From a virus (taxonomy: Duplodnaviria > Heunggongvirae > Uroviricota > Caudoviricetes), in IMG/VR virus record IMGVR_UViG_3300009788_000100: a DNA stretch of 64,000 nucleotides, one strand, 5' to 3'. Made by a program: the position numbers and the translations under genes. Numbering within the stretch: the stretch's first letter is position 1; each line of letters opens with the position of its first letter. The notes under the pieces were generated by a model. That model had not been told where the DNA came from. It saw nothing but the letters and a program-made list of their open reading frames with translations, and did not search any database. This document shows, one piece after another, positions 919-44,526 of the stretch.

Positions 919-1436
919 TTAGAGGCCGCCTTTCCTGGTTTAGTCTTCTTTGAATAGTAAGCCTCTTGCAGCTTATTGTCAAGATCCGACCCAGGAAAAA
1001 TCAGTACAGCATTGCAGATATCGTGGTATTTTTTGATAATATCTTTAATGGCCTTGTGGTAGTAGTCGCAACCTCGAATCTTACCTAGAGGTTCGTTTTC
1101 TGCCCTTACCCAACCAGCGTCTATATCTTCACTTTCAATTGCGTCGGCTTCTTCTTCTTGCCACCTTTTCCTCATCACCTTGTGGAAGATAGTCACCCAA
1201 GAAGAGGGGTTCTCTTTTTTGAAAACTATTACATTGGTTTTGTCTAAGGAGTCAGTGATTTCAAGCCTTAGAGGCAACCATGCGTCGATGTCCAGTGTGC
1301 CGGGAGCCGTTGTCTTACCTGTTAGCCAACTAACGTTTAGCCTATTATTGCTATGCAGCGAGTGCAGCAAGGCTGCGCGTGGGACTAAAGTCTTCTTGGA
1401 CTCGATCACTAGCTTTAGGTGGGCGATACGGCTCAT
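912..1436 (-). CDS. hypothetical protein immediately upstream of the RuvB-like gene
   Basis: 174-aa ORF overlapping the RuvB-like start by a few nt. Acidic mid-region; no motif recognised. The true start may be an internal Met, because the 5' part overlaps the GNAT ORF. Confidence 0.3.
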   Translation of the reverse strand: MSRIAHLKLVIESKKTLVPRAALLHSLHSNNRLNVSWLTGKTTAPGTLDIDAWLPLRLEITDSLDKTNVIVFKKENPSSWVTIFHKVMRKRWQEEEADAIESEDIDAGWVRAENEPLGKIRGCDYYHKAIKDIIKKYHDICNAVLIFPGSDLDNKLQEAYYSKKTKPGKAASNG

Positions 1437-1854
1437 TTTCTCTCAACAGAAGGTGAACTTTGTAGTCTGATACAGTAGAGGTTGCTGAAATGTGAAAACC
1501 CATAGATACAAACAGTGCAATCGAGGCTTCATTATCAGCGCGAATAGTAGCGAAAAGTAGGGGTGTTATCGCTGTAGCCATCGCTTTCTTCAACAAGCCC
1601 CGACCGAGCCCCGCCCTACGAAGAATAGGGTGCACCACGAGGTGCTTGACCTCCGACAATAAGAAGCTCACACGTTGAACTCCAATACTACCGAAGACCA
1701 AACCCCCGAGGACTTCTGGAAGGTACACCGTTTTTGAGTTCAATACCTTAAAGGCATTGTACGGGGTGCGTAGCCGGTTATGTAGGTTAAGTAGGTGGGC
1801 TACTTGTGCAGCAATAACTTCCGTGGGTAGTTTTGAATTACCCAGTTGAGGCAC
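1351..1854 (-). CDS. GNAT-family N-acetyltransferase
   Basis: 167 aa. Motif VHPILRRAGLGRGLL matches GNAT motif A (Q/R-x-x-G-x-G/A acetyl-CoA site). Stop overlaps the next gene (coupled). Confidence 0.6.
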   Translation of the reverse strand: MPQLGNSKLPTEVIAAQVAHLLNLHNRLRTPYNAFKVLNSKTVYLPEVLGGLVFGSIGVQRVSFLLSEVKHLVVHPILRRAGLGRGLLKKAMATAITPLLFATIRADNEASIALFVSMGFHISATSTVSDYKVHLLLRENEPYRPPKASDRVQEDFSPTRSLAALAA

Positions 1855-2827
1855 CTGTGAGCCCGCCCTTCATCTTCCGGAGCTCAACAAGAATTGCATC
1901 CGTCTCCGCATCGGTAGCGTCGTGCACTAGGGAAAGAAGGAGCTCTCGGGAGGTCATAGCCTTCTCTGTTACCCAAGCAGCAATCGCTGCAATAATGGGT
2001 TGTTGAATTGAAACTACCTCCCGAAGGTTGGGGGTGGTAACTACGTTCAATACTAGGGGAGCACCGGACTCGGTAATTACCACATCAACCGCGCAGAAGT
2101 CGAACTCGAGTGCTTTACACACCTCAACAGCACACTGCCGTGTCGTCTCAGAGAAAGCAGTATAGGGCATCCAGTAGGATTTCGCTGGCGCCACTACCTT
2201 CTCGTCTAGCGCTCTCTGCATCACGTGGCGGTATGCCGCCTCGGAAATGCTATCTTCGTCTCCGCCAAACAACTGCGTGGCGGCAAGGTCGGCGAAGCTG
2301 GCATTGGTGGGGGTAGTTTTGCGAGTGCAGGCAACAACATCATTCCCGACAACAAATAGCCGAATACGCTCCTTACTGAGGAAAGCACGTTGGATTGCCA
2401 GAGTGCACCCATCTGCCATTGCCGCCTGAATATCCCCCTGATTTTTGACCAGGCGGGCCATGGAGCCGTTGTTTTTGCAGGCAACGAATCCTGCTGAAGG
2501 CGTAGCGTTCAGCAAGTTACAGGTGTTTTCGTACCCTGTAGATGCCGCAAGTAAAAACACACCCAGTGTAATAGTTCCCGTTTCGCCAATCTTTGCGAAC
2601 ATAGTTCGCCGGTCAGTGTACTTTCGTACTTTACGTGGGTCGTTAAACAGGCTTCGAAAATTGCGCCTTTCCCACTTGAAGATATCGCTAGGGCCGGCGC
2701 CCCAACAAACGGCTGTGCCGTTAAACCCACTAGGGGGAACGAGACCTCGTAAGCTGGTGTTAAGTTGTGAAGCGAGCCAGGTTGCGGTTTCCGCCGATGC
2801 TTTTGAGTGCCAAATGAAATTGTCCAT
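1838..2827 (-). CDS. ATP-grasp-fold enzyme (RimK / glutathione-synthetase-like ligase)
   Basis: 329 aa. C-terminal FDFCAVDVVITESGAPLVLNVVTTPNL resembles the ATP-grasp GLDVAGVDIL...PLVMEVNASPGL block, with the catalytic E/N positions partly substituted. Overlaps neighbours on both sides. Confidence 0.45.
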   Translation of the reverse strand: MDNFIWHSKASAETATWLASQLNTSLRGLVPPSGFNGTAVCWGAGPSDIFKWERRNFRSLFNDPRKVRKYTDRRTMFAKIGETGTITLGVFLLAASTGYENTCNLLNATPSAGFVACKNNGSMARLVKNQGDIQAAMADGCTLAIQRAFLSKERIRLFVVGNDVVACTRKTTPTNASFADLAATQLFGGDEDSISEAAYRHVMQRALDEKVVAPAKSYWMPYTAFSETTRQCAVEVCKALEFDFCAVDVVITESGAPLVLNVVTTPNLREVVSIQQPIIAAIAAWVTEKAMTSRELLLSLVHDATDAETDAILVELRKMKGGLTGASTG

Positions 2828-2830
2828 GTT

Positions 2831-4069
2831 TTATCCTCTCACGAATAGAGACCCTTTTGCCAACCATGTATCCCGAACATCGAGATTTAGGCGCCCTTGG
2901 TCTTTTTCAGTCATACGAACAAGGCTTAGAAATTCGTCTATTTCCGCCTTGTATTTAGAATAGTTATCTAGTGACCGCAGTTTCTTTGCTACCCCGTCCA
3001 ACAAAGATGTACTTACTGTATTAGGATCGGCAGAGTTGATAGCTCCTTGGACGTCTTCTATCCGACTAACCTTTCGGCTTTTAAGAAATCCCTTTCTATC
3101 AACCCTTGCACAAATCCACTCATCGTTAAACGACTTATCTGCCATGTCCTGTAAACATGATTCTACTACAGCTTTAGAAGCGCCGAGCACTGCTGTTGCA
3201 AATGTAGGGTGGCTTAACCATAAACCGGAGGGCACCCGCCACTCGAAGCGCCCCTCCTTAACTCTGTAGTCTCCCCAGCGGCCGTACCTTCCGTAGTTAC
3301 CCCACTTCTCATTACGGCGGTGGTGCGGCATGGGGGTATCAACCTTGACGAGAGCTAGGGCAACCGTTTCGTCTAAAACACGCACCGTTTGTTTATAGAT
3401 GCTGTTCTTCTGGTCTTCAGGAAGTTCCCTTGGATTACCAAACTGTATATGGCCGCCGATGTGAACGATGCGCGCTGTAGGGTTGGGACTTTTATAAGAA
3501 GCGCCGGAGCGCCACAGATATGGATTAAGTTTTCCTGCGTCTCGTTGTAAAATTGTTTTAATGTTTGCAACGAGTCCCGCCGGGGTTAAAGTCGGCGGCG
3601 GCCTTACCTCTACTAGCGGGCCATCGTGTCCAAGCTCATCCTCTAAAGAAAGCCCTGTAAGGTGTTCTGCGTATTTATAGGTAAGAGTCTCCGGATCAAC
3701 TATGGCAAACTCGGGGTCTCCTCCAATTAAAATGTTGCCTACTCCATCGGAGATATAGGCTTTTTTAGAGTCCGTGGTAACGCGGCAGAAAATCTCCGGA
3801 GAAACGAAACAAGTTATACATGCTTCTTCTCTTGTTATTTCTCCTTTGGCTATCTCTACTGTTAGATTACGGGAATCTTCGGTGTACGCGTTATTCACTT
3901 GCAAGAAAACTTGTTGTTCCCCCGCCGTGAGTGCGAGTGTAGCCCCCGGGGAAAGGCCGTGGTGCTGCCGTGTTCTCTTAGGAAGCCGGATAAGCCCCTG
4001 CTCTCCGGGTTTCCCGGGTCCCATCTTGTCGGAGACAACAAGACGGATACCAGCATTTTTATTCTGCAC
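2831..4069 (-). CDS. carboxylate-amine ligase (YbdK/GCS2-like 'amidoligase'), paralog 1
   Basis: 412 aa. N-terminal IGGDPEFAIVDPE (compare YbdK LGIELEMQVVN metal-binding block) and GGHIQFGNPRE (compare YbdK FGQHVHVG). The same two motifs recur in the ORFs at 9418 and 30344. Confidence 0.55.
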   Translation of the reverse strand: MQNKNAGIRLVVSDKMGPGKPGEQGLIRLPKRTRQHHGLSPGATLALTAGEQQVFLQVNNAYTEDSRNLTVEIAKGEITREEACITCFVSPEIFCRVTTDSKKAYISDGVGNILIGGDPEFAIVDPETLTYKYAEHLTGLSLEDELGHDGPLVEVRPPPTLTPAGLVANIKTILQRDAGKLNPYLWRSGASYKSPNPTARIVHIGGHIQFGNPRELPEDQKNSIYKQTVRVLDETVALALVKVDTPMPHHRRNEKWGNYGRYGRWGDYRVKEGRFEWRVPSGLWLSHPTFATAVLGASKAVVESCLQDMADKSFNDEWICARVDRKGFLKSRKVSRIEDVQGAINSADPNTVSTSLLDGVAKKLRSLDNYSKYKAEIDEFLSLVRMTEKDQGRLNLDVRDTWLAKGSLFVRG

Positions 4070-4076
4070 TTCGCTC

Positions 4077-5909
4077 CTAGTTTTTAATGCTCTTTAGAAC
4101 TGCACGCGTGTCTTTCGCAGTTTCGTTTGTGGCCATTTTTGCGGTTTGGGAAAATCCTTGGGTAATAACTTGAAGGTTTTGCTCACTGAAGAGCTCCCGG
4201 ACCATGCTGGAGGAGACGTTTTGAAAGCCCGGGGCCGTTGTTATAAAGTCTTCTAGATCAGAATCGAACTCTAAGCAAGTCTCACCCAAGGCGTTTTCTT
4301 CAACGGTTCCCAGTCCGTGAGTAACGATGGCTGCTAGCAGGAAGCCTTTCATGTTAGCAATGAACGCCGCTGCCCTGCGCTGTTTAGTCTTAGCGTCCAT
4401 CAGCTTGCTGCGGAGACTTACCGATTCGTGCTCCAAGCTTTTGATTATCTCAGAGTCGTCTGAGGCGGTATCACTGGAAGCCTGTGCCGCGGCCCCTTTA
4501 CGAAAGCCAGTAGCGTACCCCTCACCAAAAGCTTCCGGGTACAGTTGGTGCACTAGCTCACCGGCGTCGCCTTCCGCGACTCCCTTAATGGAGACGTAGT
4601 CAGCGAACTTACCCGCGTGGCGGTTAAGCAGTAAGTTCTCGTCATCCCGTGCACCTTCTCCAAGGGCCCACTCGGCCCCTTGTTTACAAAGTTCGTCCAC
4701 GGTGTAGGTATCTCCAACGTTTGTGTCTTCGCCCATATCATCCATAATTTCGGTGTCATTAACAACTTGTGTTTTAGCTTTCTCTGCTCCATACCCAGAG
4801 AGGTCGACGACTTCGGCCTGCGCCAACGTTGAACGCTTTGCCGGCTTTGAGGTGTTTACACCACCTGTTTCGCTGTCGGAAGAACCGCTGCTTGTGCCCG
4901 CACCGGAACTACGGAAGGATGTTTTGGGAGCAGAGAGTCCTTGTTTGTGACCGTTACCTTGATTTTTTGAATGGTTCGGTTTATCTGTTTTATACTCGTC
5001 CAAAACGTCCGGGCATTCAACCAGAGGAAACATTTCGGAGAGTGAGACAGTATCATCCATGGACTGGGAAACGTCGATAACACCACCCTTATCCAAGGGA
5101 ATTTTCATCCACTCGCACGACAGCTCTGGGAGATTTCGGTCCAACGACATCCGCGCCCGCGTGTACACATCTAAGGCAGTGTTAAGGAAGCGCTGTTCAG
5201 AGCAGATCACAGCGAGCCCAAGCTCTCGAATGTAAGCGAGTTCCAGGGGGCGCTCGTGATTGCGGAAATAAATAACCTTTTCGGGATGGTTTCTATTGTA
5301 CGCAAAGACTGCCCGGGGGCCAACAATTCGCTCAGTAACGAATTTAATATCCTCTTCCCCCAGAGCTCGATCATTAGCGTTTTCTGCAAGGAGTTGGAAG
5401 ACGGCCTCAGAATCTACTTCTCCCATGCGAGTCATTTCGCTGTGTTTGTTGTAGATCTCTTTGCAGTTTTTAATGCCACCATTATGAACGCCGATAATGT
5501 TACCAACCAAAATAGGATGGTTGTTAACAGGGTGGTACTCTGACCCAACGGTTTTCGCCCGGGTGTGCCCCAAGATGTGTAACAGGGGGCGCTTTACTTC
5601 ACAGGCTACATCCATTAGGTTAAAAATGTCAGCGCCCTCTTCCTGGCCTTTGTAGCGGGGGCTGGTGCCATCGTTATTATAAAAATCCCCTGTGTCGACC
5701 GGCTGTTTAAGTACGGTCCAAAAGTAGGGACCCTGGGGGTCGGTTTCTCGTTGTCCAAAAGAGAGGGCAATTCCTGTTGCATCTTTTCCACGCGCGACGG
5801 TTTCTAACAGCGTCTCGTTGTGGATGTACAAAGAAATCAGACGCCGCGACGCCGGGCCTACCGCTTGGTTTGAAGTTTTTAGGGGAAAAACCCCTACGAT
5901 TCCGCACAT
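4077..5909 (-). CDS. class-II (Ntn) glutamine amidotransferase domain protein with long acidic/low-complexity C-terminal region
   Basis: 610 aa starting MCGIVGVF, the Met-Cys N-terminus diagnostic of Ntn-type GATases (PurF/GlmS/AsnB). The C-terminal ~300 aa are S/D/E-rich with no synthetase domain recognised. Confidence 0.7.
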   Translation of the reverse strand: MCGIVGVFPLKTSNQAVGPASRRLISLYIHNETLLETVARGKDATGIALSFGQRETDPQGPYFWTVLKQPVDTGDFYNNDGTSPRYKGQEEGADIFNLMDVACEVKRPLLHILGHTRAKTVGSEYHPVNNHPILVGNIIGVHNGGIKNCKEIYNKHSEMTRMGEVDSEAVFQLLAENANDRALGEEDIKFVTERIVGPRAVFAYNRNHPEKVIYFRNHERPLELAYIRELGLAVICSEQRFLNTALDVYTRARMSLDRNLPELSCEWMKIPLDKGGVIDVSQSMDDTVSLSEMFPLVECPDVLDEYKTDKPNHSKNQGNGHKQGLSAPKTSFRSSGAGTSSGSSDSETGGVNTSKPAKRSTLAQAEVVDLSGYGAEKAKTQVVNDTEIMDDMGEDTNVGDTYTVDELCKQGAEWALGEGARDDENLLLNRHAGKFADYVSIKGVAEGDAGELVHQLYPEAFGEGYATGFRKGAAAQASSDTASDDSEIIKSLEHESVSLRSKLMDAKTKQRRAAAFIANMKGFLLAAIVTHGLGTVEENALGETCLEFDSDLEDFITTAPGFQNVSSSMVRELFSEQNLQVITQGFSQTAKMATNETAKDTRAVLKSIKN

Positions 5910-5910
5910 A

Positions 5911-6831
5911 TTATGATTGTCCTCCCGACGCGACCCACGTTACGTTATCTGTGGCATACTCGGTAATAGTGTTTACATTTATTACCGACTCTTTCACATC
6001 CCACCCCGACTCCGGTGGTTTCTTATATGTATCTAAATCGTGGCGCTGTTTTGTGGCTTCTAGTGGTGACATAAAACCACCGTAAAAAGAGATTAACTTG
6101 GCAGACGTGGTTGTTTCTCGTTTAAGATCTACACCGTCTAGATGTGTAATGTAATTAGAGTTCTTGCTAAATAGATAGACATCGCTGTTCATCCTAGAAG
6201 CATAAACTCCTGCTTTACGATCTCTACCGTTGGGCCAAGGGCGAGTAATAACTTCTATCGCTGCCCCGCAGAGTGTTTCCGCTTCATAGGTGGGGACTAT
6301 TGTATCCAGCCCGTATAAACGTGCCTCGATGAGCACCGCCGGTGGAGTACCCGGTATGGCCTCTCTTTTCCACAAAATTTGGCAAGGATACTTTTTACCA
6401 ACTTCGTGGAGCAACGCCAAGATGGAACGCTTGCCCACTACGTTAAAGTAAACGGATGCGTCTGTTAACCGATCAATGTCGGCGAGGCTCTTGAGGGGAG
6501 ACCTTTTATACAAGGACACCGGCACGCGGTCTACTACATGTAAATCTCTGGGAGAAAGTAATTGACCTTCCTCTGCCAAGATCTCCGGGTCCAGGGGGTT
6601 GTGCTCATTGCGGACGAAAGCCAGCCTAGAGTTAGGCACTATCAAAGGAAATCTTACTGGTATTAAGTTATCCTTGCGTGCTTTACCGTATTTTTCTTTG
6701 TAGACACTTTCCTCCAAAAGACTACGCAGGGTTTCTCCTAGACAGCCGTAGAAGGGGGGGATGTTTAGTTTGGCTTTAGTCTTCCCGGCGGGAACGCCAG
6801 GAAAAAACTCGACCGTTATCAACTCATTCAT
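5911..6831 (-). CDS. hypothetical protein, operon member between the two GAT-II genes
   Basis: 306 aa. Start is 2 nt after the upstream stop, and its own start overlaps the next gene (6828..6831). No confident motif. Confidence 0.35.
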   Translation of the reverse strand: MNELITVEFFPGVPAGKTKAKLNIPPFYGCLGETLRSLLEESVYKEKYGKARKDNLIPVRFPLIVPNSRLAFVRNEHNPLDPEILAEEGQLLSPRDLHVVDRVPVSLYKRSPLKSLADIDRLTDASVYFNVVGKRSILALLHEVGKKYPCQILWKREAIPGTPPAVLIEARLYGLDTIVPTYEAETLCGAAIEVITRPWPNGRDRKAGVYASRMNSDVYLFSKNSNYITHLDGVDLKRETTTSAKLISFYGGFMSPLEATKQRHDLDTYKKPPESGWDVKESVINVNTITEYATDNVTWVASGGQS

Positions 6832-7778
6832 GCCCTTTTACCGCGGCCTTCTGTGACCTCGTAGTCATCTTTATATTTAACTAACATTTTAGCTCTGGCG
6901 ATTATCGACTGACTCGGAGGTAAGTCCCTCTTGCCCAATAATAGGGTGGAGTAATCGCTGGGGGCGTCGCCATCAAGGGTGATCAGCTGGTTGGGTGCAA
7001 GCTTGTAGCGTTTGAGGGGCTTACGGATTTCGTCTTCTAAAGAATTATTAATGTAACTCCACCGAGAAGCAAAAACAGCTATTTCCGGGGTGCCGCACCA
7101 ACCTAAAGACAGTGGTGCCTCTCGGTCCCGAGCTAATAATATTTTGCCTGGTTCTTTCAGGCACACGACAGCAACTGCATACCAACCCCGCACTTCGTGT
7201 AGAGCCGCCGCTAGTGCGGTTTCAGGCTCGACCGCACTGCCGGATAGAAGTTTTCGGTGTGTAAGGGCAAAGATAATCTCACTATCGCACTTACTTTTTG
7301 GCTGCAAATAACCGGAATATCGGGCCCAAAGTTTGGCGTCGTTAATTACCCTCCCGTTGTGAACCCCAACGATGTCGCCATAAAAGTGCGGGTGGTTGTT
7401 AGTGTTGTCCTCTGCTCCGGAGATACTACCACTGACCGCCCGCGTATGGCCCACTATAGACAGTGTACTATTATTAACACGATCTAAAAGACTCGAGTAT
7501 TCGTTAGTTTCGACAAAATCTTTAGCACATAGGGGGGCACGAAGAATATATACTTTTGGTTTGGCTTCGGCATTCTCTCTAGAGACAAGCATTACGCCAG
7601 TAGCAGCTGAGCCCCTCTCTTGGGCCTCCACCAACATTTTGGTGAATGTTTCTTTTACTGCATTAATCTTAGTGCCCCTATAGTCAGAGTCTCTTTTAAA
7701 GGAGAACCCTACGATTCCACACATTATTTCTGTATACCTTTCTAGGCTACTAAGAATCCGCCGTGCTCTGAAGACCAA
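6828..7778 (-). CDS. stand-alone class-II (Ntn) glutamine amidotransferase
   Basis: 316 aa. MCGIVGFSFKRD N-terminal nucleophile Cys. SIVGHTRAVSGS and NHPHFYGDIVGVHNGRVIN blocks parallel the 4077 paralog (LHILGHTRAKTVGS / NNHPILVGNIIGVHNGGIKN). Confidence 0.7.
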   Translation of the reverse strand: MVFRARRILSSLERYTEIMCGIVGFSFKRDSDYRGTKINAVKETFTKMLVEAQERGSAATGVMLVSRENAEAKPKVYILRAPLCAKDFVETNEYSSLLDRVNNSTLSIVGHTRAVSGSISGAEDNTNNHPHFYGDIVGVHNGRVINDAKLWARYSGYLQPKSKCDSEIIFALTHRKLLSGSAVEPETALAAALHEVRGWYAVAVVCLKEPGKILLARDREAPLSLGWCGTPEIAVFASRWSYINNSLEDEIRKPLKRYKLAPNQLITLDGDAPSDYSTLLLGKRDLPPSQSIIARAKMLVKYKDDYEVTEGRGKRA

Positions 7779-9424
7779 TTTATTTTCTGCTGAGCAGCTA
7801 ATTGTGCAGCAAACTCTTTAAGCTCGGTGTGTAGAGCGTTGGTCTCTTCTTCACTTTGACTAGCACCGGTTTCTCGTGCAAGTTGGTCAGCGGCAGCGCT
7901 AACCCACTCTTCAGAGCTACCGCACTCGGATATTGCCCCAAGATTAGCTATGCGGAGGATGTACTCTTCGTGTTCGTGCACATCCGTGCGGTACGGCATA
8001 AGATCAGTTTCGATCTTCTCCCAAGAATCCCCTCGGATAAGGCGCAGTGCTATAGGCATTTCCGCTAATTCTCGCAGAATTGCATCCGCCGGATAAAGCT
8101 CCGAGAGCGTATTCTTCACTAGCCTAATTAGCTGGTGTGATTGTTTGGTGAGCTCCGGAATATAAGGATCCAAGCGGCTAGTATCAGAAACACGGGTAGA
8201 GGCACCATCACTTCCCCAGGAGCTGTCGTTGTTGCAGAGGTGACTATATATCTCCTTCTGCAGCGCCATATACTCTTGGTTGCCTGATTTTAGAATACCA
8301 TGGCGTGAGACCTCTACCGCCTTGATCATCAACCCAAACAGAAGGCAAACGTGTGCCGTAATGGCTGCCGGAGAGGTACACCCGTCCATGTAGCGGCCCT
8401 CGACGTGAAGGCGATCTACTTCGCCCTCGTCGTTGAACTCAATCTGTTCGTAGTTAATAAATCCGTATTTTCGCTTGCTCTTACTCGCGTTTCCTACTTC
8501 TCTGACAACAACCGGCATTTTATAGCGGATTGCTGAGTAGGGAAGGATTGTTTTTCTGAATTTTTCCCACCGCGTAATGCTGTTTTTGTGTGCCCCGGCC
8601 GCACTAAGCCACACGAGAGCACTTTGGTAACGCCGTACAAGCTGATGAAAGTTAGCGAGAATAATCTCAGGAACAGCTCTCTCCAACTCTGTAATCGCCC
8701 CGCGAAGGTATTTAGTGCCTCTGTCTCCCTCCCCAAATTCTGGAGTTAAGTAGGAGGCTAGAATATGCACGTGAATAGAACAACGTTCATTGCTGTAGGC
8801 CCCGCGCTCCTTGCAGATGTTCAGAATTCCCCGCATCATGTCGTAGATGGGGGCGAATTGAACGCGCCGCCCTACCGTTGCTACTTCGATGCCGCCGTCC
8901 CCCAGCAGGGAACCGTCGCGACAAACCTTGTATGTTCCCGTGGCCCCGTACTGCCCAACAAATCGGGTCGGCTTCAGTTTTTTGCCGATATCATCGCGAA
9001 TCTTACGCGGATCTTTATCAATGTCGTATAACTCAGGACAGGCGGCGCACCCTCGGTCGAAGTCGCTGCACTTAGAACACGGGGATTTGAAGGCTACGCA
9101 ATACACTCCTGCGCACTTCTCTTGCTGAGCAATTTCGCAGTTACCGTTATTCCAAAGAGTACATTGCTCGAAACACGATTTGGTTTCGGGCATCGGTTTG
9201 GTCGCATCATAGGGAACTTGGCATTTACAAAGGAAGTTTTGACGGTCGCACCGCCCGTGGACTTCCGGTAAATTGAGCTCCACTTCGATACCGGCTTTCA
9301 GCAAACGCTGTAGTGTCTGCTTCCAGTAACGGACTTCTTTAGCGTCAAGTGCTGGCCGAGAGGGCTTTTCGACAAAGACCCATTCACTAGACTGGTTTTT
9401 CATATTCTCCCCGCGGTTTACCAA
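7742..9424 (-). CDS. large Cys-rich protein of the operon, possibly a divergent amidoligase-like enzyme
   Basis: 560 aa. N-terminal Cys cluster (CKCQVP...CFEQC...CEIAQQEKCAGVYC...CSKCSDFDRGCAACPE), then GDGGIEVATVG and CSIHVHI, which loosely echo amidoligase E-x-E and HVHV motifs with atypical spacing. Overlaps both neighbours. Confidence 0.4.
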   Translation of the reverse strand: MVNRGENMKNQSSEWVFVEKPSRPALDAKEVRYWKQTLQRLLKAGIEVELNLPEVHGRCDRQNFLCKCQVPYDATKPMPETKSCFEQCTLWNNGNCEIAQQEKCAGVYCVAFKSPCSKCSDFDRGCAACPELYDIDKDPRKIRDDIGKKLKPTRFVGQYGATGTYKVCRDGSLLGDGGIEVATVGRRVQFAPIYDMMRGILNICKERGAYSNERCSIHVHILASYLTPEFGEGDRGTKYLRGAITELERAVPEIILANFHQLVRRYQSALVWLSAAGAHKNSITRWEKFRKTILPYSAIRYKMPVVVREVGNASKSKRKYGFINYEQIEFNDEGEVDRLHVEGRYMDGCTSPAAITAHVCLLFGLMIKAVEVSRHGILKSGNQEYMALQKEIYSHLCNNDSSWGSDGASTRVSDTSRLDPYIPELTKQSHQLIRLVKNTLSELYPADAILRELAEMPIALRLIRGDSWEKIETDLMPYRTDVHEHEEYILRIANLGAISECGSSEEWVSAAADQLARETGASQSEEETNALHTELKEFAAQLAAQQKINWSSEHGGFLVA

Positions 9425-10515
9425 TTGTCCAAGAGACGTGGACTATACTGTTTGTTTTCTGCCATTACCGAAAAGTAACCACGAATAGACTCTTCGTGTT
9501 CGTGGAAGTACCTTAACCGGCGAAGACGTTCAATTAAATTAGGGAGCATTGCCACCGCTGCTTTTTTTGTCGGCTCTGACAACGCCCACCGAATACTACT
9601 TTTACTTGGAAGATCGTACTTTTTCTGAAATAGAGAAAACCCCGCACACTTGTTAAGTTCGCGCCAGTTAAGGCTCTCGCTTCGTGCGTCCTCGAATATC
9701 TCCCGAGATACACATAAAGCCAAACCCATAACCCCAGCAGCGTAATTTGGGTGCCGGAGATGAAAACCTCCCGGCGTTCTATATTCTACAGTACGATTAG
9801 TGATTCTAAAGTCGCCCGGCTTTCCGTACATCCCATTGCCGAGTCGGCGTAAGTTGGTATCCTCAAGAAGCATTGCTGGGATGCCTACAAAATAATCGAG
9901 CGCTGTAATAAAGCTTCTAACAAACTCTTTAGAAGCGACCGCTGCGCCTGTAGTAATTTCCCGAGGAGCTCCGATGTGAATGTGGAAACCTAAAGCATAG
10001 TTTTGCCAGCAGGAGTGCCCCTCCATGGTGACCTGGGAAGTGCCACCAAATTGATGCTCCATTAATACAGGTAGACAATGAATTAGCTTTCTTAAGTTTT
10101 CTACTACCTCTCGTTCGTGTTCTGCCGGAGAAGGTCTTAGTTCTGCTAATGGCCCGTCGCTGCCTACTAGACCTTTTGTAGGTAGCCAATAGTTGGCTGG
10201 CATAACTTGGCCTCTAGAGTCTATAAATACAAACTCTGGATCACACCCTAAAGTTACAATATCAGGGTCCGTAGGATTACCAACCACCAAGTCAAAGGTG
10301 TGCTGGCTTACCCAAGAGGCCCCTCTTTCCTTCGCTGCCTCCGCACTGTGGGCGTCGGCCACAACAACAGAGAGCTTACCCCCAGATTCAGTGCTTAGCG
10401 AAAGCTCTGCCCCGGGGTTTACTTTAAGCTTTGCTTTTTGTTTCGCCGATAGCCGGATTACACCATCTTCTCCCGCCTTCGACATTCTTGTACTTACTTG
10501 TAAGTCTAAGCGCAT
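9418..10515 (-). CDS. carboxylate-amine ligase (YbdK/GCS2-like 'amidoligase'), paralog 2
   Basis: 365 aa. LGCDPEFVFIDSRG and LGFHIHIGAPRE motifs shared with 2831..4069 and 30344..31267. Confidence 0.55.
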   Translation of the reverse strand: MRLDLQVSTRMSKAGEDGVIRLSAKQKAKLKVNPGAELSLSTESGGKLSVVVADAHSAEAAKERGASWVSQHTFDLVVGNPTDPDIVTLGCDPEFVFIDSRGQVMPANYWLPTKGLVGSDGPLAELRPSPAEHEREVVENLRKLIHCLPVLMEHQFGGTSQVTMEGHSCWQNYALGFHIHIGAPREITTGAAVASKEFVRSFITALDYFVGIPAMLLEDTNLRRLGNGMYGKPGDFRITNRTVEYRTPGGFHLRHPNYAAGVMGLALCVSREIFEDARSESLNWRELNKCAGFSLFQKKYDLPSKSSIRWALSEPTKKAAVAMLPNLIERLRRLRYFHEHEESIRGYFSVMAENKQYSPRLLDNW

Positions 10516-12396: not shown

Positions 12397-12831
12397 TTAC
12401 TGTCCTCGAGAACCTTTAATGTATTTTTGAGCGAGCTCTCGCTTAGTGGCAGCATCAAGTGCGTCGAAGTCCGTGGTATCGTCCTTGTCTTCGGCCTCTT
12501 CCTTACTGCCACCGGAACCAAAGATAACATCACGAGCAACGCAACCGAAGCCCGTACGTTTGATGTCGTTGCGGTCCGTATATTTGTCGGACTCGAACTC
12601 TCCAGTTACGAGGACGGTGCGCCCTCGGCTGAGGAACTCTCCACAAACCTGAGCTTGGCGCCCGAAGACGGTGGTAGGAATGAAAGCAGTCTTCTCCTCA
12701 CCATTGGGGAGTCGCCGATTAACAGCAACGGTGAACTTGCAAGCAGTGGTGCCGTTGTCGAAGGTGCGCATTTCGGGGTCATCCGTAAGCCGCCCTTGGT
12801 ATGTAATTTGTGCGAAGCCGATGATACTCAT
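12397..12831 (-). CDS. ssb: single-stranded DNA-binding protein (OB-fold SSB), paralog 1
   Basis: 144 aa. IGFAQITYQGRLTDDPEMR...FIPTTVFGRQAQVCGEFLSRGRTVLVTGEFESDKY follows the bacterial SSB OB-fold pattern. Acidic C-terminal tail (EEAEDKDDTTDFD). Confidence 0.75.
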   Translation of the reverse strand: MSIIGFAQITYQGRLTDDPEMRTFDNGTTACKFTVAVNRRLPNGEEKTAFIPTTVFGRQAQVCGEFLSRGRTVLVTGEFESDKYTDRNDIKRTGFGCVARDVIFGSGGSKEEAEDKDDTTDFDALDAATKRELAQKYIKGSRGQ

Positions 12832-17068: not shown

Positions 17069-17559
17069 GTCCCTACTCCCGGTTCCGGGTTTCTTGCCGG
17101 CTTGTAGCCACGCGCACGTAGCTCCTTTATAACCTCTTCGATGACAACAGCAGGTACATCATCATCTTCGGGTATGACAAAGGAGTGCTCCCCTTTGAGA
17201 ACTATGTCGGGAGTAGCTACTTCTTTAAGGAAGGCGCGTACGAGGTCGCGCGCTGCTCTACCTATCGTTTCTTCCCGCATTTGTTCTGCTACGCGGGCCA
17301 TATCAGCCGCAGAGGGGATCTCTTCCTCTACAGACATAGGGCCTCGCCCCTTTTTAGAGACGAGGCCCTCCGGTTGCTCCTCAGCGCTGACCCTTTGGGG
17401 TCTATGAACTTTAGTCCCGTCTAGCTGTTCGATTATGCGCTCTCGTTTAAGGATATAGCCGCAAGCATCTTCAGCACAAACGGTTTCTTCAACGTCGCCG
17501 GCGTCGTCGATATCAACGCGGATCTTGATGTCTTCACTTTTACAAAATGGACACTGCAT
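16876..17559 (-). CDS. zinc-ribbon protein with highly charged C-terminal tail
   Basis: 227 aa. N-terminal MQCPFCKSEDIKIRVD...CAEDACGY zinc ribbon, K/R/E-rich tail. Start overlaps the RNAP stop region. Confidence 0.4.
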   Translation of the reverse strand: MQCPFCKSEDIKIRVDIDDAGDVEETVCAEDACGYILKRERIIEQLDGTKVHRPQRVSAEEQPEGLVSKKGRGPMSVEEEIPSAADMARVAEQMREETIGRAARDLVRAFLKEVATPDIVLKGEHSFVIPEDDDVPAVVIEEVIKELRARGYKPARNPEPGVGTWIQIKWPTQVAKKRKKRKADSTPETEELVFKKKNEGDEEIKRKARLAKNHRKKALSARSELPK

Positions 17560-20500
17560 TAGACTCTCTTCTCTTATTAAGTGCCCGGTGCCACAAATAC
17601 GAGGTCAAGTCGACCGACGCTGTGTCCAGGTGCTGCCGCAACCGGACCGGGCTCAGGTTGGAACGAGTTGCAAAGTAGAAACGTCGCTTCTTCTTCACGA
17701 TGACGTTGACGATGCTGGAGCGCCCTCGTTTCAGGTGGGAACTGTAGTGACGCTGCAGGTCATTTACCCCAACACCTTCCGCCTCTTTGCGAATGATTTC
17801 ACACAGTCGTTCTGACCCCTCTGCGGGGAAGCCCATTGCGAGAAGTTCCTTAAGATTTGCCGTGCAAATTGCTGCTTTACAGCGGTCTTCTAGAGAAACG
17901 CCCGCGTGCTTCTTGGCGAAGACGGAGTTTGCCACTTTATCCATGATAACTTCCATGGCCAAGTTTGTTTCGCGGTCGTCAAACCCAACGTTGCCCTCAA
18001 TGATTCGCATAGTGTTGTAAGCCAACGCTACGACGGTGCCGGTGCCCCGCTTGACTCCGGTGAGATTAACAACGATTTCCGCCTGCTCCTCTGCGTTGAG
18101 GGGGTTAAAGCTGCTGAGGCCGATGTCTGTTATGTTGACTGGTTTTGTGCAAGGAACTTTGGTTGCATTAGCCGCCCGTATGTAGCCAATACGGCTAGCG
18201 TCTGGAGCTAAGTACTCCTTTTGAAGGAGCTCTTTTGCTGCTTCTGTGTGGAACGACATCAAGAAGATAACATCCCCATCGAAGTCGAGGCCCTGAGAAA
18301 CCAGGCTATTGCCGCTGACCCGAATGACGAAACGACACGCGGGGTCGTCCGTTACTCGCACTCGCTGCATTCGCAGCGACTGAAACCCGAGGCAAGGGAA
18401 GCGTTCAGCGATGACAATATCGCCGGTTTTTACTGCGAGATTCTCTGCCATCTCGGCATGAATCTCAATCCAGTTCTCCGGGAGGTCGTCTTTAGCTAAG
18501 GTTGCCGTCGCTTTCGCGGAGTGGGGATAGCGCACAGCTAGGGCGTAAGTGGCGATGTCTCCTCGTTTAGTACTTAACTTCTTCGACACGTGATGGAAGT
18601 AGCGGTTAATTGTACGCAGAAGATTATCTTCCGGGGCCCCCTCGTCGACGTAACGGTGGCAGGCTACCACGATGTTGTTGAGGTAGCCTCCTGTATCGGA
18701 GAGCCCCCAAGTTCCTGTTGGGTGCTGCCAACAATCTCGCAACTCCGCACGAGGAATATACAACTTATCGATAAAGGTGTTCACTCCCCCGGGGAGAGAG
18801 GCTTCTTCTAGATTGTTTCCCTCTGAAATCAGGCGATACTCTACATCCTTGTTCTCATCGTCGGGAACGAAGACGTGATAAAGTCGAGGCAACTGCAACA
18901 TGAAGCCTTCGGGGCCGAGAGTGCTATCGACAATGGTATACCGCAATTCTGCGCGGGAGTGGAAATAACTCCCGTTTTGATATAGAGGCTTGATGCAAGA
19001 CCAATCCAAGATGGACTTTTTAAAGCTTTCGCCCTGCAGAGTACCCAGGGTATCGACTAACTCCACGACGTCATCAAACCCTTGTTGGTAGGAGAGAATC
19101 TCATCGGTGATGGGGTTATCTTTTCCGAATATGGTTGTCAAGCCCCGGATCTCGATGTGGCTGAGCTTTACCCCTGCAGTTCGACGACCGCGGTTATCGG
19201 TGGCAGTAACTTCGGCTTTGGTCCACAGCTGATTTTCAGGGTTCTTAATCAGACCCCAGAAGCCCCACCCGCAGAGAGTCCTTCCCGTAAACCAAGGGGT
19301 GCGCACCGGAGAAGTTCCGTCGGCGGCGTACCCCGAAGCTACCAGGGAGGTTTGCAGTTGTGGCAAGCTGACCTTGGCGTCATCTTCAATGACTGTTTCG
19401 CGACCATGTGTTGTCAACGTTAACAGCGCTTCTAAAACCTGCCCGAAGTTACGACGTTTTCCAACCGTTTTTGCAGAGACAATAATATCGATAGGGCGTT
19501 CTTCACCAGTACCTTCGTCTACCATGGTACCACAGTCAGCAAAAGTTACAACTCCCTTGTTGCCGTGACAGTTCGTTAGTTTGACACCTTCTTTAAAGCT
19601 ATGCTTGGTCTCAATGTAGACCCAGGTAGCGTGGCGTTCTTTGCCGTTAAAAGCAACTGTGTCTGTTTCCACGGCGGTTACAAGCGCGTGGTCGGCCCTT
19701 ACCCAGAAGCTGAGTGGCTTGCCATTAGGCTCGACAGAGAGCACGTAACCTTCCTCTATCTGATCGCCAGCTGCAACCTTAACCTCACCAAAACAAAGAA
19801 AGCGCCGGCTTTCTGCCGTCACTTTGTCCAGGTGCCTGTTATCGAGAATCAACTGGTCTTCGAAGTTAGCAGGAACATCAAGGAAGCAGGTCATCAGGTT
19901 CCAGCCCCGGCGGGCAACCCCGGTCTTTTGGGTCAACTCGGCCATGCTGCGACTTTGGATAGTCGGCGTTTCAGTTCCCTTCATCCCCAGCGTTTGGTAG
20001 AGGTTGCGCATCGGGTTGTGGTGGGACAGTCCGAAGGGGGTGAAGCGACGCAGGTCCTGCTTGAGCAGGTTGTTGTTGCACATCCCAGAATCGGAGAGAC
20101 CGATTGAGGTCCAAGGAAAATGCTTCTTGTTGAGCTCTCGCTGGTATTCTAATGCTGCTTGTGGCGGCAGCGCATCGAACTCCGGATCCAGAAAGACAAC
20201 ACGGTTGCACATCGCCCAGGTTTCCATAGGGGTTCCCGTCAGCGGCAGCTTGTTGACCAGGCCGTTGACAATATCCTGAAGGCTGCGGAAAGACATCGGC
20301 GCTTGCTTAGAGTCGAAACTCATAACCAGCCGTTCAAGTTGGGAGCGTTTTCCAACCCCGGCAAAAGCGGTCTCTATTCTGCCGGTGAGTAACCAAGCCA
20401 TAAGGTTCCAGTAGCTGTACTCTTTATCGTCGTGATTCCAAGTACCTACGGCTCTCTTTACACGTCTTCCGATGACGTAGTTTTTGTATTCATCGTCGTA

Positions 20501-20713
20501 AGGCTTCGGGAAACAGAGGCTCTGAGAAAGCTCGCCGCAGAAGAAATGGAGCCAAAGGCTATCTTCGGTCTCGCTCGTACTACAGAGCACCTGCAGAGGG
20601 TTACCCCGTCGGTACTTATTCAAGTTGCAGATGATTGCGCCGAGCTTTAAGTTAACTGCGGCCTTGAAACACTCCATGCTCTCTTCTCCTTTGGGTTCGT
20701 GGACACACACCAC
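17540..20713 (-). CDS. single-polypeptide RNA polymerase with beta-like and beta-prime-like double-psi beta-barrel motifs (YonO / crAss-gp66 / QDE-1-like)
   Basis: 1057 aa. KLTNCHGNKGVVTFAD at about aa 385 matches the RpoB GRHGNKGV lysine motif. SQGLDFDGDVIF at about aa 815 matches the RpoC NADFDGD Mg-binding motif. Both sit in one ORF, in beta-then-beta-prime order. A good SD (AAAGGAGAAG) precedes the ATG. Confidence 0.55.
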   Translation of the reverse strand: MVCVHEPKGEESMECFKAAVNLKLGAIICNLNKYRRGNPLQVLCSTSETEDSLWLHFFCGELSQSLCFPKPYDDEYKNYVIGRRVKRAVGTWNHDDKEYSYWNLMAWLLTGRIETAFAGVGKRSQLERLVMSFDSKQAPMSFRSLQDIVNGLVNKLPLTGTPMETWAMCNRVVFLDPEFDALPPQAALEYQRELNKKHFPWTSIGLSDSGMCNNNLLKQDLRRFTPFGLSHHNPMRNLYQTLGMKGTETPTIQSRSMAELTQKTGVARRGWNLMTCFLDVPANFEDQLILDNRHLDKVTAESRRFLCFGEVKVAAGDQIEEGYVLSVEPNGKPLSFWVRADHALVTAVETDTVAFNGKERHATWVYIETKHSFKEGVKLTNCHGNKGVVTFADCGTMVDEGTGEERPIDIIVSAKTVGKRRNFGQVLEALLTLTTHGRETVIEDDAKVSLPQLQTSLVASGYAADGTSPVRTPWFTGRTLCGWGFWGLIKNPENQLWTKAEVTATDNRGRRTAGVKLSHIEIRGLTTIFGKDNPITDEILSYQQGFDDVVELVDTLGTLQGESFKKSILDWSCIKPLYQNGSYFHSRAELRYTIVDSTLGPEGFMLQLPRLYHVFVPDDENKDVEYRLISEGNNLEEASLPGGVNTFIDKLYIPRAELRDCWQHPTGTWGLSDTGGYLNNIVVACHRYVDEGAPEDNLLRTINRYFHHVSKKLSTKRGDIATYALAVRYPHSAKATATLAKDDLPENWIEIHAEMAENLAVKTGDIVIAERFPCLGFQSLRMQRVRVTDDPACRFVIRVSGNSLVSQGLDFDGDVIFLMSFHTEAAKELLQKEYLAPDASRIGYIRAANATKVPCTKPVNITDIGLSSFNPLNAEEQAEIVVNLTGVKRGTGTVVALAYNTMRIIEGNVGFDDRETNLAMEVIMDKVANSVFAKKHAGVSLEDRCKAAICTANLKELLAMGFPAEGSERLCEIIRKEAEGVGVNDLQRHYSSHLKRGRSSIVNVIVKKKRRFYFATRSNLSPVRLRQHLDTASVDLTSYLWHRALNKRRESNAVSIL

Positions 20714-20750
20714 ACCGTGCCCGACGAAAATTAAACCCCCACCTCAACTG

Positions 20751-21722
20751 TTAGTCAGTCGCTTCAGTATAGGGGTAAGCTTCCCGGCGAATAATGTCTA
20801 ATTGCCTGGTGAAAGTTTCCTGCTCCTGTGCTAAAGCATTCACAAAACGAACAGACTTATCTCTGAAGGAAGCGGAAGCATGTTGTTCAAATTGAAAGTA
20901 CCACTGGAGCATCTTCACTCCGCCGCGGGTTACGGGATCCCTGTCTCGGTACTCCATCATCCTAACCACTTCCATACTATAGCCGTGTTTGTAAGCTTCG
21001 CAGACATAATAAGCGGGGACAAGTACTCGCCGTAAAAGATCACGGCTCAAGTCGTCTTCTGAGCTTAAGTCGAGGCGTTCTCCGTAAGCATCAATAACCT
21101 CATCCGGATCGAAGGGGGCGCTTCGGAAGTACTCACGTACAAACTGAAATACGCTCCCATGTCTTCCGTCTCTTCCTTTCTGGTGGTTAACAAAAAGAAG
21201 GCCCCTCTTAGCTAGCGCTCTCTTCTCCATCAACCCGGAGACGTCACCGCCATTTTTTTCATTGAAGATACCACAAATGTCAATGTCAAGAACGTGGAAG
21301 TCTGGTCCCGCAGTCTTGTGAAATTTATACATCTCCGGCCTGAACAGGGGAAAGCGCGTCCAGCTGCCATCCCCTAGTAGGATGCGTTCTTTTGAGTACA
21401 TCCGGCGAAAAGCATTAAATTCGTCTGGCCAGATGCGCATGTCTGGCAAGTAGGTATCCCTGGTTGCTATTAGTCGGCGAAGAACCTCGGCTCTCCCGGA
21501 CCGACGGCAGTCCTGGATGGTAATAATATCCTCAGGTTTTATTAGTTTTTGGCGCAGCAACCCTCTCTCGAAGTGGGCTTTAGCCCCTGCAAAGGTCAGC
21601 GCCCTTAGCCGAGTGGGCAGATAGCCATTAGATGCCGCGTGTCGAACGAGCGTCAGCTTAAGTGACCTCGCCCTTTGTTTGTTTGGCCCGTCCCAGTGAA
21701 GGACTTTGCGGGAAGTAGACAT
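20751..21722 (-). CDS. hypothetical protein
   Basis: 323-aa ORF. No confident motif; weak methyltransferase-like impression only. Confidence 0.4.
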   Translation of the reverse strand: MSTSRKVLHWDGPNKQRARSLKLTLVRHAASNGYLPTRLRALTFAGAKAHFERGLLRQKLIKPEDIITIQDCRRSGRAEVLRRLIATRDTYLPDMRIWPDEFNAFRRMYSKERILLGDGSWTRFPLFRPEMYKFHKTAGPDFHVLDIDICGIFNEKNGGDVSGLMEKRALAKRGLLFVNHQKGRDGRHGSVFQFVREYFRSAPFDPDEVIDAYGERLDLSSEDDLSRDLLRRVLVPAYYVCEAYKHGYSMEVVRMMEYRDRDPVTRGGVKMLQWYFQFEQHASASFRDKSVRFVNALAQEQETFTRQLDIIRREAYPYTEATD

Positions 21723-22770: not shown

Positions 22771-23268
22771 TTATAGTAACAGGGTATCAAGCTCATTCCA
22801 GAAGCTGGGAAGTCTTCCCGTCTTAAGAAACCAGCGAATGAAAGGGTATTCTTTCTTGTACATTTCGAACTGAGGGGAGCCGTTGGCTTTCGAGAACCTT
22901 GAGTTGGCAATACGATCTGCCAGCTTGACAGCCAATGCCAGGGTGCCTCCCTCCCGAACCTTCAACATTGTCTTAACCGTTTTTTCCTTCCGATTCCTAC
23001 CGTTTTCATTGGTAACAGCGAATACTAACTCGCCGGTGTCATCCCCGAAAAGGTCGTAGACGTGGCGCAGCTTAGCAGAGGTGTCTTCGACTACGTCGTG
23101 CAGCCAGCCGGCAGCAAACACTCTGTCTGGAAAGTAGAAATCCCCGCTGTGCTGTTGTAACACCTGAACTACGTCTGTTAGGTGTTTCTCATAGGGATGC
23201 TCCCCGTATAACTGTCCGCCGTGGCTCTCGATGGCGAACTGTCGGGCGTTGTTAATGAGAACCTTCAT
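22771..23268 (-). CDS. HD-domain phosphohydrolase
   Basis: 165 aa. H..H...GWLHDVVEDT HD motif plus downstream D. Confidence 0.65.
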   Translation of the reverse strand: MKVLINNARQFAIESHGGQLYGEHPYEKHLTDVVQVLQQHSGDFYFPDRVFAAGWLHDVVEDTSAKLRHVYDLFGDDTGELVFAVTNENGRNRKEKTVKTMLKVREGGTLALAVKLADRIANSRFSKANGSPQFEMYKKEYPFIRWFLKTGRLPSFWNELDTLLL

Positions 23269-23820
23269 TTAATTATTTCCCCGTCCCGGGTGACCCTTTT
23301 TATCTTTATCATTTTTTTTCCGAGGAGGCATAGTTTTTAGGGGAGGACACCTATTTAACTATCTCCCAGCCCCAGGTGATCATGATTAACATTTCCTGGT
23401 GCATTTGCTCTTCTAGCTCTGCTTCCCCATCAAAATATTCATCGTCTACTTCGATTACTCTTTCAACGAGGGATTTAACCTTGCTTGTTCTAGCCCATAC
23501 TTTAACCTTCATTCGCCTGTACCTCGGCTTTAGGGAAGGAGTTCTCCATCAACAGCCTGCAAACACTGTACTCCCAGCAATCGGGCCAAACTTCTCCGCG
23601 CATCCCGGAAAGAATTTGCTGGGGTAAACTTCCACTTATAAAGGTCTTCTTTTTACCCTTCCAGGACAGACGAATACCGGTGCCAGCACCGTCTACTCGT
23701 GTTATGGTGAAGTAGTCGCGCTTTTTGGCTGGAATGTGGGTGTGCTTACCCTTCCAAGGGAAGTAATTAAACTGACAAATACCACACCATTTTGCTCCGT
23801 ACATATTCTTATCTTTCTCA

Positions 23821-27399: not shown

Positions 27400-27684
27400 T
27401 TCAATTTTTCCAGTCCGCTCGCCAACGACTTTCGGTGTTTTTTAGTTTTCGTCTCTACTATTTTAACCTCGTCCACAGCAAGATCAGTCACTTGCATTAC
27501 GAAATGACTATCGTCCGCAATTTCAACTACGGGAGATAAATCCGCTCGGGAGAGCCCGGTTGTTTGGCTGCGGTTCCAGCGGAGGTACTCTTCCCAGGGA
27601 TCCCAGTTACAATGACTGCTTGCCTTTTTTTTTCGCTTGCTCGTTTTCACAGCGGCTTCGACCCTGTCCCGGCGCCGCTGCTTC

Positions 27685-31267: not shown

Positions 31268-31291
31268 GGAAATTTCTCCTTATCCCTCTTG

Positions 31292-44511: not shown

Positions 44512-44526
44512 TTTATTCCTTATCTA

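Follow-up and report, generated by a model that had tools for sequence, protein, structure and literature searches.

What does a phage build with four ATP-dependent amide formers and two glutaminases encoded side by side? The question is raised by a block of eight open reading frames (ORFs) at positions 1351-10515 of a 64,000-nucleotide stretch of phage DNA (IMG/VR record IMGVR_UViG_3300009788_000100, Caudoviricetes). This whole stretch is referred to as the window, and all window coordinates given here are on the minus strand. A first-pass annotation, made from the sequence alone, had placed the eight consecutive ORFs at these same coordinates and described them as an ammonia-generating and amide-bond-forming toolkit with no obvious substrate gene. 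We find that the block comprises seven enzymes and one variable accessory gene, and the toolkit description was upheld. The enzymology was thus recognized at the outset, but not the kinship to a described phage cassette: the block is the phiEco32/LUZ24-type system in expanded form. The seven enzymes are the core module of an uncultured jumbo-phage lineage with genomes of ~230-300 kb, and our tentative reading is that they build a peptide adduct.

Fourteen divergent loci with 33-71% identity share one order of the seven enzymes, which places their linkage far beyond chance. The neighborhoods of the relatives came from twelve IMG/VR contigs, the longest of 298 kb, from two assemblies and from a contig binned to an archaeal metagenome-assembled genome. 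The IMG/VR relatives were located by an alignment-based scan of viral contigs, while patterns built on ligA alone were too specific and found none. The conserved order begins with a beta/beta'-like RNA polymerase, a helicase, the carboxylate-amine ligase ligA, a Cys-rich protein, a short glutamine amidotransferase (gatS) and an optional variable gene. It continues with a long glutamine amidotransferase (gatL), the ligase ligB, an ATP-grasp protein, a GNAT protein, one more unknown gene, a RuvB-like ATPase and a sigma70-like factor. Two ligase-amidotransferase adjacencies, Cys-rich ligase/gatS and gatL/ligB, are invariant.

ligA (9418-10515, 365 aa) and ligB (2831-4069, 412 aa) both matched the Pfam family PF14395 (COOH-NH2_lig), with 87.8 bits (9.1e-25) and 74.0 bits, respectively, against a gathering threshold of 25 bits. 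They are full-length paralogues with 24% identity (E = 2e-24). The catalytic domain of ligA contains the motifs GCDPEF, DG, ExRP, FHIHIG and EYR followed by a conserved C-terminal N-W, and the ligase domain of ligB, which has the YbdK/glutamate-cysteine ligase (GCL) fold, contains GGDPEF, DG, ExRP, HIGGH and ExR. The active-site residues of the two (GxDPE, DG, ExRP, HxH or GxH, ExR) were at least 93% conserved, in the case of ligA across 15 orthologues. A third PF14395 ligase, possibly associated with the cassette, is encoded 20 kb away (30344-31267, 307 aa). It also passed the threshold (41.8 bits, 9.8e-11) and matched ligA at 9e-9 and ligB at 5e-8 in BLASTP.

In ligB the ligase domain is preceded by a double-psi beta-barrel (DPBB) of the CDC48/VAT-N type (residues 1-~110, nt ~3740-4069), in which the b-b-a-b pseudo-repeat is present. 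Structure comparison found the N-domains of CDC48, VAT, PEX1 and NSF to be closest. The ~88-aa N-terminal domain of ligA (nt ~10252-10515) is homologous to this barrel. Domains of the CDC48/VAT-N type bind proteins in AAA+ ATPases. PF14395 proteins without a barrel are the members from small phages (~265-290 aa) and the third copy in the window, which consists of the catalytic domain only.

The ligases had been assigned to the YbdK/GCS2 fold from their motifs, and structure comparison bore this out. Identity to glutamate-cysteine ligase and YbdK is only 13-16%, and the DPBB, Cys-rich and winged-helix domains described here are extra to that family. Strict membership of the YbdK family was rejected, as Pfam GCS2 gave no match and only the fold is in common. 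No match was found for ligA among PDB sequences. Among the Pfam families, PF14395, GATase_6, GATase_7, RimK and PF00583 were matched, and GCS2, which had been proposed for the check, was not; for every assigned family the guess from motifs agreed with the profile searches.

The third ligase of the cassette is a 553-aa protein of the GCL/glutamine synthetase (GS) fold (7742-9403) for which there is no Pfam model. It had been taken for a 560-aa Cys-rich protein with remnants of an amidoligase. Structure comparison agreed on the ligase fold, and the protein is a genuine GCL/YbdK-fold ligase instead of a remnant. The motifs GxExE, DGS..GxE, SxHxH and HxExR were invariant in an alignment of 37 sequences of the family, and the enzyme seems to be active. 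Nineteen Cys residues are found in the ORF, and eleven Cys between residues 52 and 122 were invariant in the same alignment. These eleven belong to a lineage-specific, metal-binding-looking insert (residues ~46-130, nt ~9014-9268), and the protein ends in a winged-helix-like domain (residues ~475-553, nt ~7745-7981).

The kinship of the Cys-rich family to known ligases was visible by structure only. Pfam was blank even at E<=10 for the Cys-rich ligase and likewise for ten relatives without the insert, and it yielded nothing usable for the insert at the same cutoff. The protein did not match the Pfam Amidoligase_2 (PF12224) model in sequence. By hhalign the family showed no significant similarity to one phage Amidoligase_2 protein (probability 3%) or to the ligB family, and the family profile found nothing significant among PDB sequences. 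At the level of the fold, the protein resembled viral models named "Amidoligase enzyme" with Foldseek E-values of 1e-6 to 1e-4. Hundreds of full-length relatives were found, none of them annotated, and with 257 representative clusters in a set of 1.84 billion proteins the family is a small one.

The two stand-alone amidotransferases had been recognized as N-terminal nucleophile (Ntn) enzymes beginning with MCGIVG, and GATase_6 confirmed both as class II glutamine amidotransferase (GAT-II) domains, with scores of 41.4 and 48.9 bits where the cutoff is 27. In both proteins and in every orthologue, MCG forms the true N-terminus. gatS (6828-7724, 298 aa; GATase_6 8.6e-13, GATase_7 1.9e-9) matched the GlmS N-domain and EgtC models of NCBIfam, both below cutoff. 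Iterative searches found it in all 13 distinct loci, and its orthologues keep Cys1, R, N-HP, HNG and DSE. gatL (4077-5909, 610 aa; GATase_6 1.7e-10) has its GAT-II domain at residues 1-~300 (nt ~5010-5909) and keeps Cys1, HTR, N-HP, HNG and D-x-E in 15 orthologues. An acidic low-complexity tail of 300 aa had been noted on one of the two; it corresponds to the mildly acidic C-terminal ~310 aa of gatL (nt ~4080-5009), which have a pI of 4.8, are rich in A, S, G, T, D and E and gave nothing usable in Pfam at E<=10. The tail is poorly conserved (13-24% identity among orthologues) and variable in length, and gatL as a whole ranges from 556 to 710 aa. The catalytic residues of the ligases and amidotransferases were conserved in 11-15 orthologues per enzyme; with the motifs of three ligase families and both amidotransferases thus maintained, none of these enzymes appears dead.

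The fourth ATP-dependent enzyme is a putative ATP-grasp ligase of 329 aa (1838-2827), for which RimK, the poly-alpha-L-glutamate ligase of S6, was the best family. The Pfam RimK match (3.9e-5, 23.8 bits against 21) was confined to residues 225-273, some 50 C-terminal residues, and no stretch of it was significant alone; no S6-like target was evident. The protein further matched NCBIfam rimK_fam at 1.8e-7 (30.8 bits, far under the cutoff of 143) and PHROG 2599 at 2e-4, and its N-terminal part gave nothing usable in Pfam at E<=10. Orthologues were found by jackhmmer in at least 11 of the 13 loci. The last enzyme is a GNAT-fold N-acyltransferase (1351-1854, 167 aa; PF00583 3.5e-7, 30.9 bits against 20.7). 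RimI was its nearest NCBIfam model, below cutoff, and the family is present in all loci.

Between the two amidotransferase genes lies the optional variable gene, which encodes a 306-aa protein (5911-6831) here called the slot protein. It consists of a globular N-domain of ~230 aa, which in this family closes with a ..LDN...(L/V)DG..(L/I) motif, and a variable low-complexity tail. The slot protein and eight positional equivalents matched no Pfam, PHROG or NCBIfam family, and a search of 5.8 billion proteins with the slot protein returned only itself. The positional equivalents in the related loci (L001, L002 and so on) are nevertheless remote homologues: window-L001 1e-20, L002-L017 5e-12, L002-L011 2e-8 and L012-L013 7e-27. 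Their C-termini are not conserved, and the slot is empty in five loci (L010, L014, L016, L018 and L024). The remote homology across the slot and the five empty loci mark it as a fast-evolving, dispensable accessory of the cassette. The protein had been listed as a 306-aa unknown member of the operon; it is indeed without a family match, but is a variable accessory outside the core.

The genes of the block are closely packed. Overlaps of 1-36 nt had been reported at its junctions, and true overlaps were found at two of them, GNAT/ATP-grasp (17 nt) and slot gene/gatS (4 nt), while the rest are gaps of 1-17 nt. From the GNAT gene to the helicase gene, which lies 16 nt upstream of the block, the series of junctions begins with the 17-nt overlap, followed by three gaps (3, 7 and 1 nt), the 4-nt overlap and three more gaps (17, 14 and 16 nt). 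The reported overlaps of 36 nt (7778/7742) and 6 nt (9424/9418) were artefacts of taking the longest ORF, and checking the starts gave gaps of 17 and 14 nt instead. The start of gatS was placed at an internal ATG (gene 6828-7724) because only that ATG yields Met-Cys1. For the Cys-rich gene the ATG at codon 8, behind a GGGGAG Shine-Dalgarno sequence, was far better (gene 7742-9403). Independent JGI/ENA gene calls for the same phage agree with both lengths, 298 and 553 aa.

Tight packing is a property of the whole window and no peculiarity of the block. Outside the block, half of the junctions within the first 36 kb likewise measure no more than 20 nt, and 89 of the 99 window ORFs are on the minus strand. 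A scan for promoters and terminators gave counts at or near the shuffled expectation and no intergenic candidate inside the block, so co-transcription of the block is likely. The block sits in a replication/transcription module, with the helicase and an SSB gene upstream and the RuvB-like ATPase and sigma factor genes downstream.

Reference collections contain very little of this lineage. The 9.2-kb block gave no match in megablast against 50,697 deposited phages, nor did the Cys-rich ligase and the RNA polymerase in tblastn against the same set. For ligA, tblastn gave remote matches only, at 24-40% identity over 22-60% of the query. A single contig, L024 (WJJK01000109.1, 26.5 kb), matched the DPBB ligase in a search of 185,579 species-representative genomes. 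L024 is binned as "Candidatus Altiarchaeales archaeon" and holds the helicase, ligA, Cys-ligase, gatS, gatL, ligB, ATP-grasp and GNAT genes. It is most likely a mis-binned phage contig, but might hint at the host. Throughout the lineage the cassette is a core block and no optional extra, which argues for an important role in infection.

The phiEco32/LUZ24-type system was reportedly first analyzed by Iyer et al. in 2009, and that work is said to be the source of the name of PF14395, "Phage phiEco32-like COOH.NH2 ligase-type 2". Its components recur here in one block: a PF14395 ligase, a second ligase (a fold-level match only), GAT-II and ATP-grasp. In Pseudomonas phage HHBS10_2 the cassette runs GAT-II, PF14395, hypothetical protein, Amidoligase_2 and RimK-like ATP-grasp, beside primase/helicase and sigma factor genes. 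In the LUZ24-like phage UFV-P2 it runs PF14395, hypothetical protein, Amidoligase_2, GAT-II (486 aa), ATP-grasp and an AIG2/GGCT-like protein (ORF29) that adjoins the ATP-grasp gene. Taken over HHBS10_2, UFV-P2, tf and LUZ24, the small cassettes share with the window PF14395, an Amidoligase_2-type ligase, GAT-II with a C-terminal extension, ATP-grasp and, at the level of the genome, GGCT/AIG2; they likewise lie in an early/replication region near helicase and sigma factor genes. Each of the two ligase-amidotransferase adjacencies has a precedent in one small-phage cassette.

The differences are also clear. Here, both the PF14395 ligase and GAT-II are duplicated, and both PF14395 ligases of the cassette have acquired a CDC48/VAT-N-type DPBB. 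The Amidoligase_2 slot is taken by the 553-aa family with its 11-Cys insert and winged helix, a GNAT gene is added, and a hypervariable accessory gene stands between the two amidotransferases. The GGCT family gene that comes directly after the ATP-grasp gene in the LUZ24-like cassette has a counterpart, the GGACT gene, elsewhere in the window. Finally, the carrier is a jumbo phage of ~230-300 kb with the cassette as a core block of its lineage. What is new is the fusion of ligases to DPBB domains, a ligase family with a Cys cluster and winged helix but no Pfam model, the duplication, the hypervariable partner gene and the lineage-core status. A literature search on phage amidoligase systems found no experimental work, only mentions in genome annotations.

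What might the cassette produce? The first-pass annotation had left the choice between a gamma-glutamyl-type peptide or protein modification and a nucleobase hypermodification. The evidence leans to the peptide/protein side, and no hypermodification marker was detected in the DNA inspected. Our favored reading, held with a confidence that stays somewhat short of even, is a short amidated, N-capped peptide adduct of the Glu/Gln type on a protein or peptide acceptor, not on a DNA base. Metal- and phosphate-binding motifs are intact in the three GCL/GS-fold enzymes, and from family chemistry each would convert a carboxylate to an acyl-phosphate and couple it to an amine. The two invariant ligase-amidotransferase adjacencies suggest glutamine-dependent amidation: the Cys-rich ligase with gatS, and gatL with ligB, would amidate carboxylates, comparable to GS with free ammonia. 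ligA and the ATP-grasp ligase would add amino-acid units, probably of the Glu type, and the GNAT would cap a free amine. Together the enzymes would probably form a multi-step amide-bond assembly line during early or middle infection. The barrels of ligA and ligB and the winged helix of the Cys-rich ligase may dock onto a macromolecular acceptor; alternatively, the docking domains may hold the enzymes to each other. The acceptor could be a phage or host protein, or the stem peptide of the cell envelope as originally proposed for phiEco32, whose cassette was suggested by the 2009 survey to modify the cell wall and block superinfection, as cited in PMC10580990.

Several lines of evidence point toward peptides. 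Bacterial relatives of PF14395 sit between a YheCD-type ATP-grasp and an M99/AstE-type carboxypeptidase. This is a peptide context, and an adduct on a protein or an envelope peptide is therefore favored. Linked COOH-NH2, ATP-grasp and GNAT ligases have been interpreted as ligating peptides one step after another, with acyl capping at the end (PMC4431377). The window also encodes two possibly associated enzymes that handle gamma-glutamyl groups. One is a Peptidase_C26 protein of the class-I GATase fold, resembling gamma-glutamyl hydrolase (28049-28783; PF07722 6.6e-20), with a homologue in L013. The other is a GGACT/AIG2-like gamma-glutamyl cyclotransferase of 132 aa (44113-44511), an ORF assigned by its FVYGSL motif, as the matches to GGACT (5.6e-21) and phrog_2520 (2.9e-25) were both scored for the ORF set. 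Together with the third PF14395 ligase, these enzymes lean to the peptide reading.

Other points weigh against it. The inspected DNA is part of each genome only. Stand-alone GAT-II proteins can be gamma-glutamyl amidohydrolases, as the EgtC-like matches may indicate, and not ammonia donors, and the match behind the ATP-grasp assignment is weak and partial. DPBB and winged-helix domains are also found in nucleic-acid-binding proteins and so are no proof of a protein acceptor, and the position in a replication/transcription module would suit a nucleic-acid target too.

Among the rival explanations, we rank a soluble small molecule next to the peptide adduct and DNA hypermodification after that. 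The cassette might make a free gamma-glutamyl-type oligopeptide or an amine conjugate, similar to glutathione, a polyamine or a cofactor tail, for host takeover or counter-defence. The closest structural relatives of the ligases are indeed glutamate-cysteine ligases and YbdK, and in ergothioneine biosynthesis pairs of a GCS2-like ligase and GAT-II act on small molecules, which fits the EgtC-like matches of gatS. The GGACT and C26 enzymes would serve this reading as well, the cassette comes without a conserved substrate protein, and NAD-synthesis genes in the same genome show investment in metabolites. Docking domains of the CDC48-N and winged-helix types would, however, be needless for small-molecule ligases, no transporter or precursor-supply gene is linked, and the ligases are only 8-16% identical to characterized small-molecule enzymes. 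We consider a soluble product rather unlikely on this balance. That the genes are functionally unrelated neighbors, with an operon look that merely reflects genome-wide packing, is very improbable. The short junctions of the first 36 kb and the location of nearly all genes on one strand would allow it, but seven genes in one order in 14 loci down to 33% identity, and the independent recurrence of the family combination in unrelated small phages, speak against it; on the synteny this reading was rejected.

DNA or nucleotide hypermodification would have the ligases extend, amidate and acetylate a base bearing a carboxyl or amino group (for example glycinyl- or glutamyl-thymine or a carboxy-pyrimidine) against restriction. 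Thymidine hypermodification clusters (5-HMUDK, aGPT-Pplase/AADT, PLP, rSAM, FAD, GNAT; Lee et al., 2018 and 2021) are likewise clusters of phage tailoring enzymes, some with amidoligase, glutaminotransferase and GNAT domains. In metagenomic clusters of this kind, 5-HMUDK and aGPT-Pplase2 are accompanied by domains of the amidoligase and glutaminotransferase types (Lee et al., 2021, PMC8989533), and a GNAT acetylates 5-NmdU in PaMx11 (PMC8989533). The position between helicase/SSB and RuvB-like ATPase, the winged helix of the Cys-rich ligase and the status of a core gene block would also agree with a DNA target. Against this, the defining enzymes of such clusters were not detected: no 5-HMUDK, aGPT-Pplase/AADT, thymidylate-synthase-like hydroxymethylase, TET/JBP or DpdA was found among the ~88 window ORFs scanned, in a further ~18 kb that flank the window in the same phage, or in the flanks of two relatives as annotated with Pfam. 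A hydroxymethylase and a 5-HMUDK-type kinase, which had been suggested as the genes to look for elsewhere in the genome, were thus both missing from the DNA inspected. UDG-like and dioxygenase-like matches were below Pfam cutoffs and 40 kb away, and the DPBB is of the CDC48/VAT-N type. We know of no demonstrated step in the known hypermodification pathways that uses a GCL-fold ligase. Five type II enzymes (RsaI, HpaI, EcoRV, SmaI and HaeIII) were able to cut the virion DNA of phage tf, a carrier of the small cassette, and this DNA was cloned normally. The absence of markers from the inspected minor part of each 230-300-kb genome and the digestion of tf DNA weaken the DNA reading, and we judge it unlikely.

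A further proposal, speculative and in our opinion doubtful, is that the cassette is a protein-tagging or peptide-building machine. The barrels would recruit a phage or host protein, possibly the slot protein or the disordered gatL tail, and the four ligases would build on it an amidated, acetyl-capped oligo-Glu/Gln branch; in a variant, the phage DNA would be decorated without 5-HMUDK/AADT chemistry. Compared to the Pup ligase PafA and the depupylase/deamidase Dop, the amide chemistry would here involve separate Ntn glutaminases. Searches that were not aimed at pupylation brought up neither a small Pup-like protein nor a proteasome or Mpa gene, and no candidate for a small tag with a conserved Gln/Glu at its C-terminus or for a recognition ATPase.

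Other genes of the window and its flanks are reported here in their own right. The RNA polymerase gene of the conserved order (17540-20713) encodes a 1057-aa polypeptide with a beta-type barrel (HGNKGV; RNA_pol_Rpb2_6 3e-6) and a beta'-type barrel (GLDFDGD at residue 810; RNA_pol_Rpb1_2 5e-3), which makes it a fused RNA polymerase of compact two-barrel form. All relatives have it upstream of the cassette, with 1054-1160 aa, and the gene for a sigma70_r2 protein lies just outside the start of the window. Two SSB-family genes are present (12397-12831, 4.6e-22; 34515-34988, 3.7e-10), as are an HD_4 (RelA/SpoT-type HD) phosphohydrolase (22771-23268), a tmRNA (23819-24215; Rfam RF00023, 65.3 bits, E 3e-23), for which ARAGORN gave the tag peptide GNSFVKFASMVANTNRTAAPRALAAA, and a tRNA-Gln(UUG) (42382-42455). 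A second region rich in amide chemistry (25289-32140) includes the C26 protein, the third PF14395 ligase and several unknowns, and may cooperate with the cassette. It starts with a class-I GATase (25289-25936, 4e-33) and a HExxH protein (25878-26438), and contains a weak glucosaminidase-like ORF (29636-30148, E 0.005).

The GGACT gene is part of a cluster (43060-46090) with a Peptidase_M50-like membrane protein (43060-43683) and a peptide deformylase (45515-46090). An Asp/Arg-hydroxylase-like cupin (47289-47801), sub-threshold for Asp_Arg_Hydrox, was the only dioxygenase-like match, and a UDG-superfamily protein (49194-49646) was also sub-threshold. A radical SAM enzyme (57449-58405) came nearest to the families of MoaA, SPASM-maturase and viperin but reached none of the cutoffs, and Thg1, a tRNA-His guanylyltransferase, is encoded at 59320-60084 (phrog_4717, 2e-92). 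Among 51 smaller proteins scanned, 11 PHROG families were matched, 3 of them HNH endonuclease families. Neither in the 64 kb nor in the ~18 kb of flanks was any gene for virion proteins, packaging or lysis recognized. On contig L022 of the same phage, ~8-10 kb beyond window position 1, positions 19023-20990 encode an NMNAT-like CTP_transf_like+NUDIX protein and an NAD synthase (PF02540), preceded by two pentapeptide-repeat proteins; the NAD-synthesis genes could be a counter-defence against NAD depletion. On the related contig L003, positions 3465-9993, corresponding to the region beyond window position 64000, hold an RNA-repair set of AAA ATPase, RtcB, RNA ligase (PF09414) and RNase T.

Many phages, therapy candidates among them, carry cassettes of the kind predicted in 2009, with GAT-II, COOH-NH2 ligase, amidoligase and ATP-grasp. 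The docking domains, the Cys insert and the hypervariable partner gene described here are concrete entry points for experiments, and cultured phages that have the small cassette, such as LUZ24, tf and phiEco32, are probably the faster route to its product. If the cassette were indeed a tagging machine, it would represent a new viral system of post-translational modification, comparable to pupylation or polyglutamylation.

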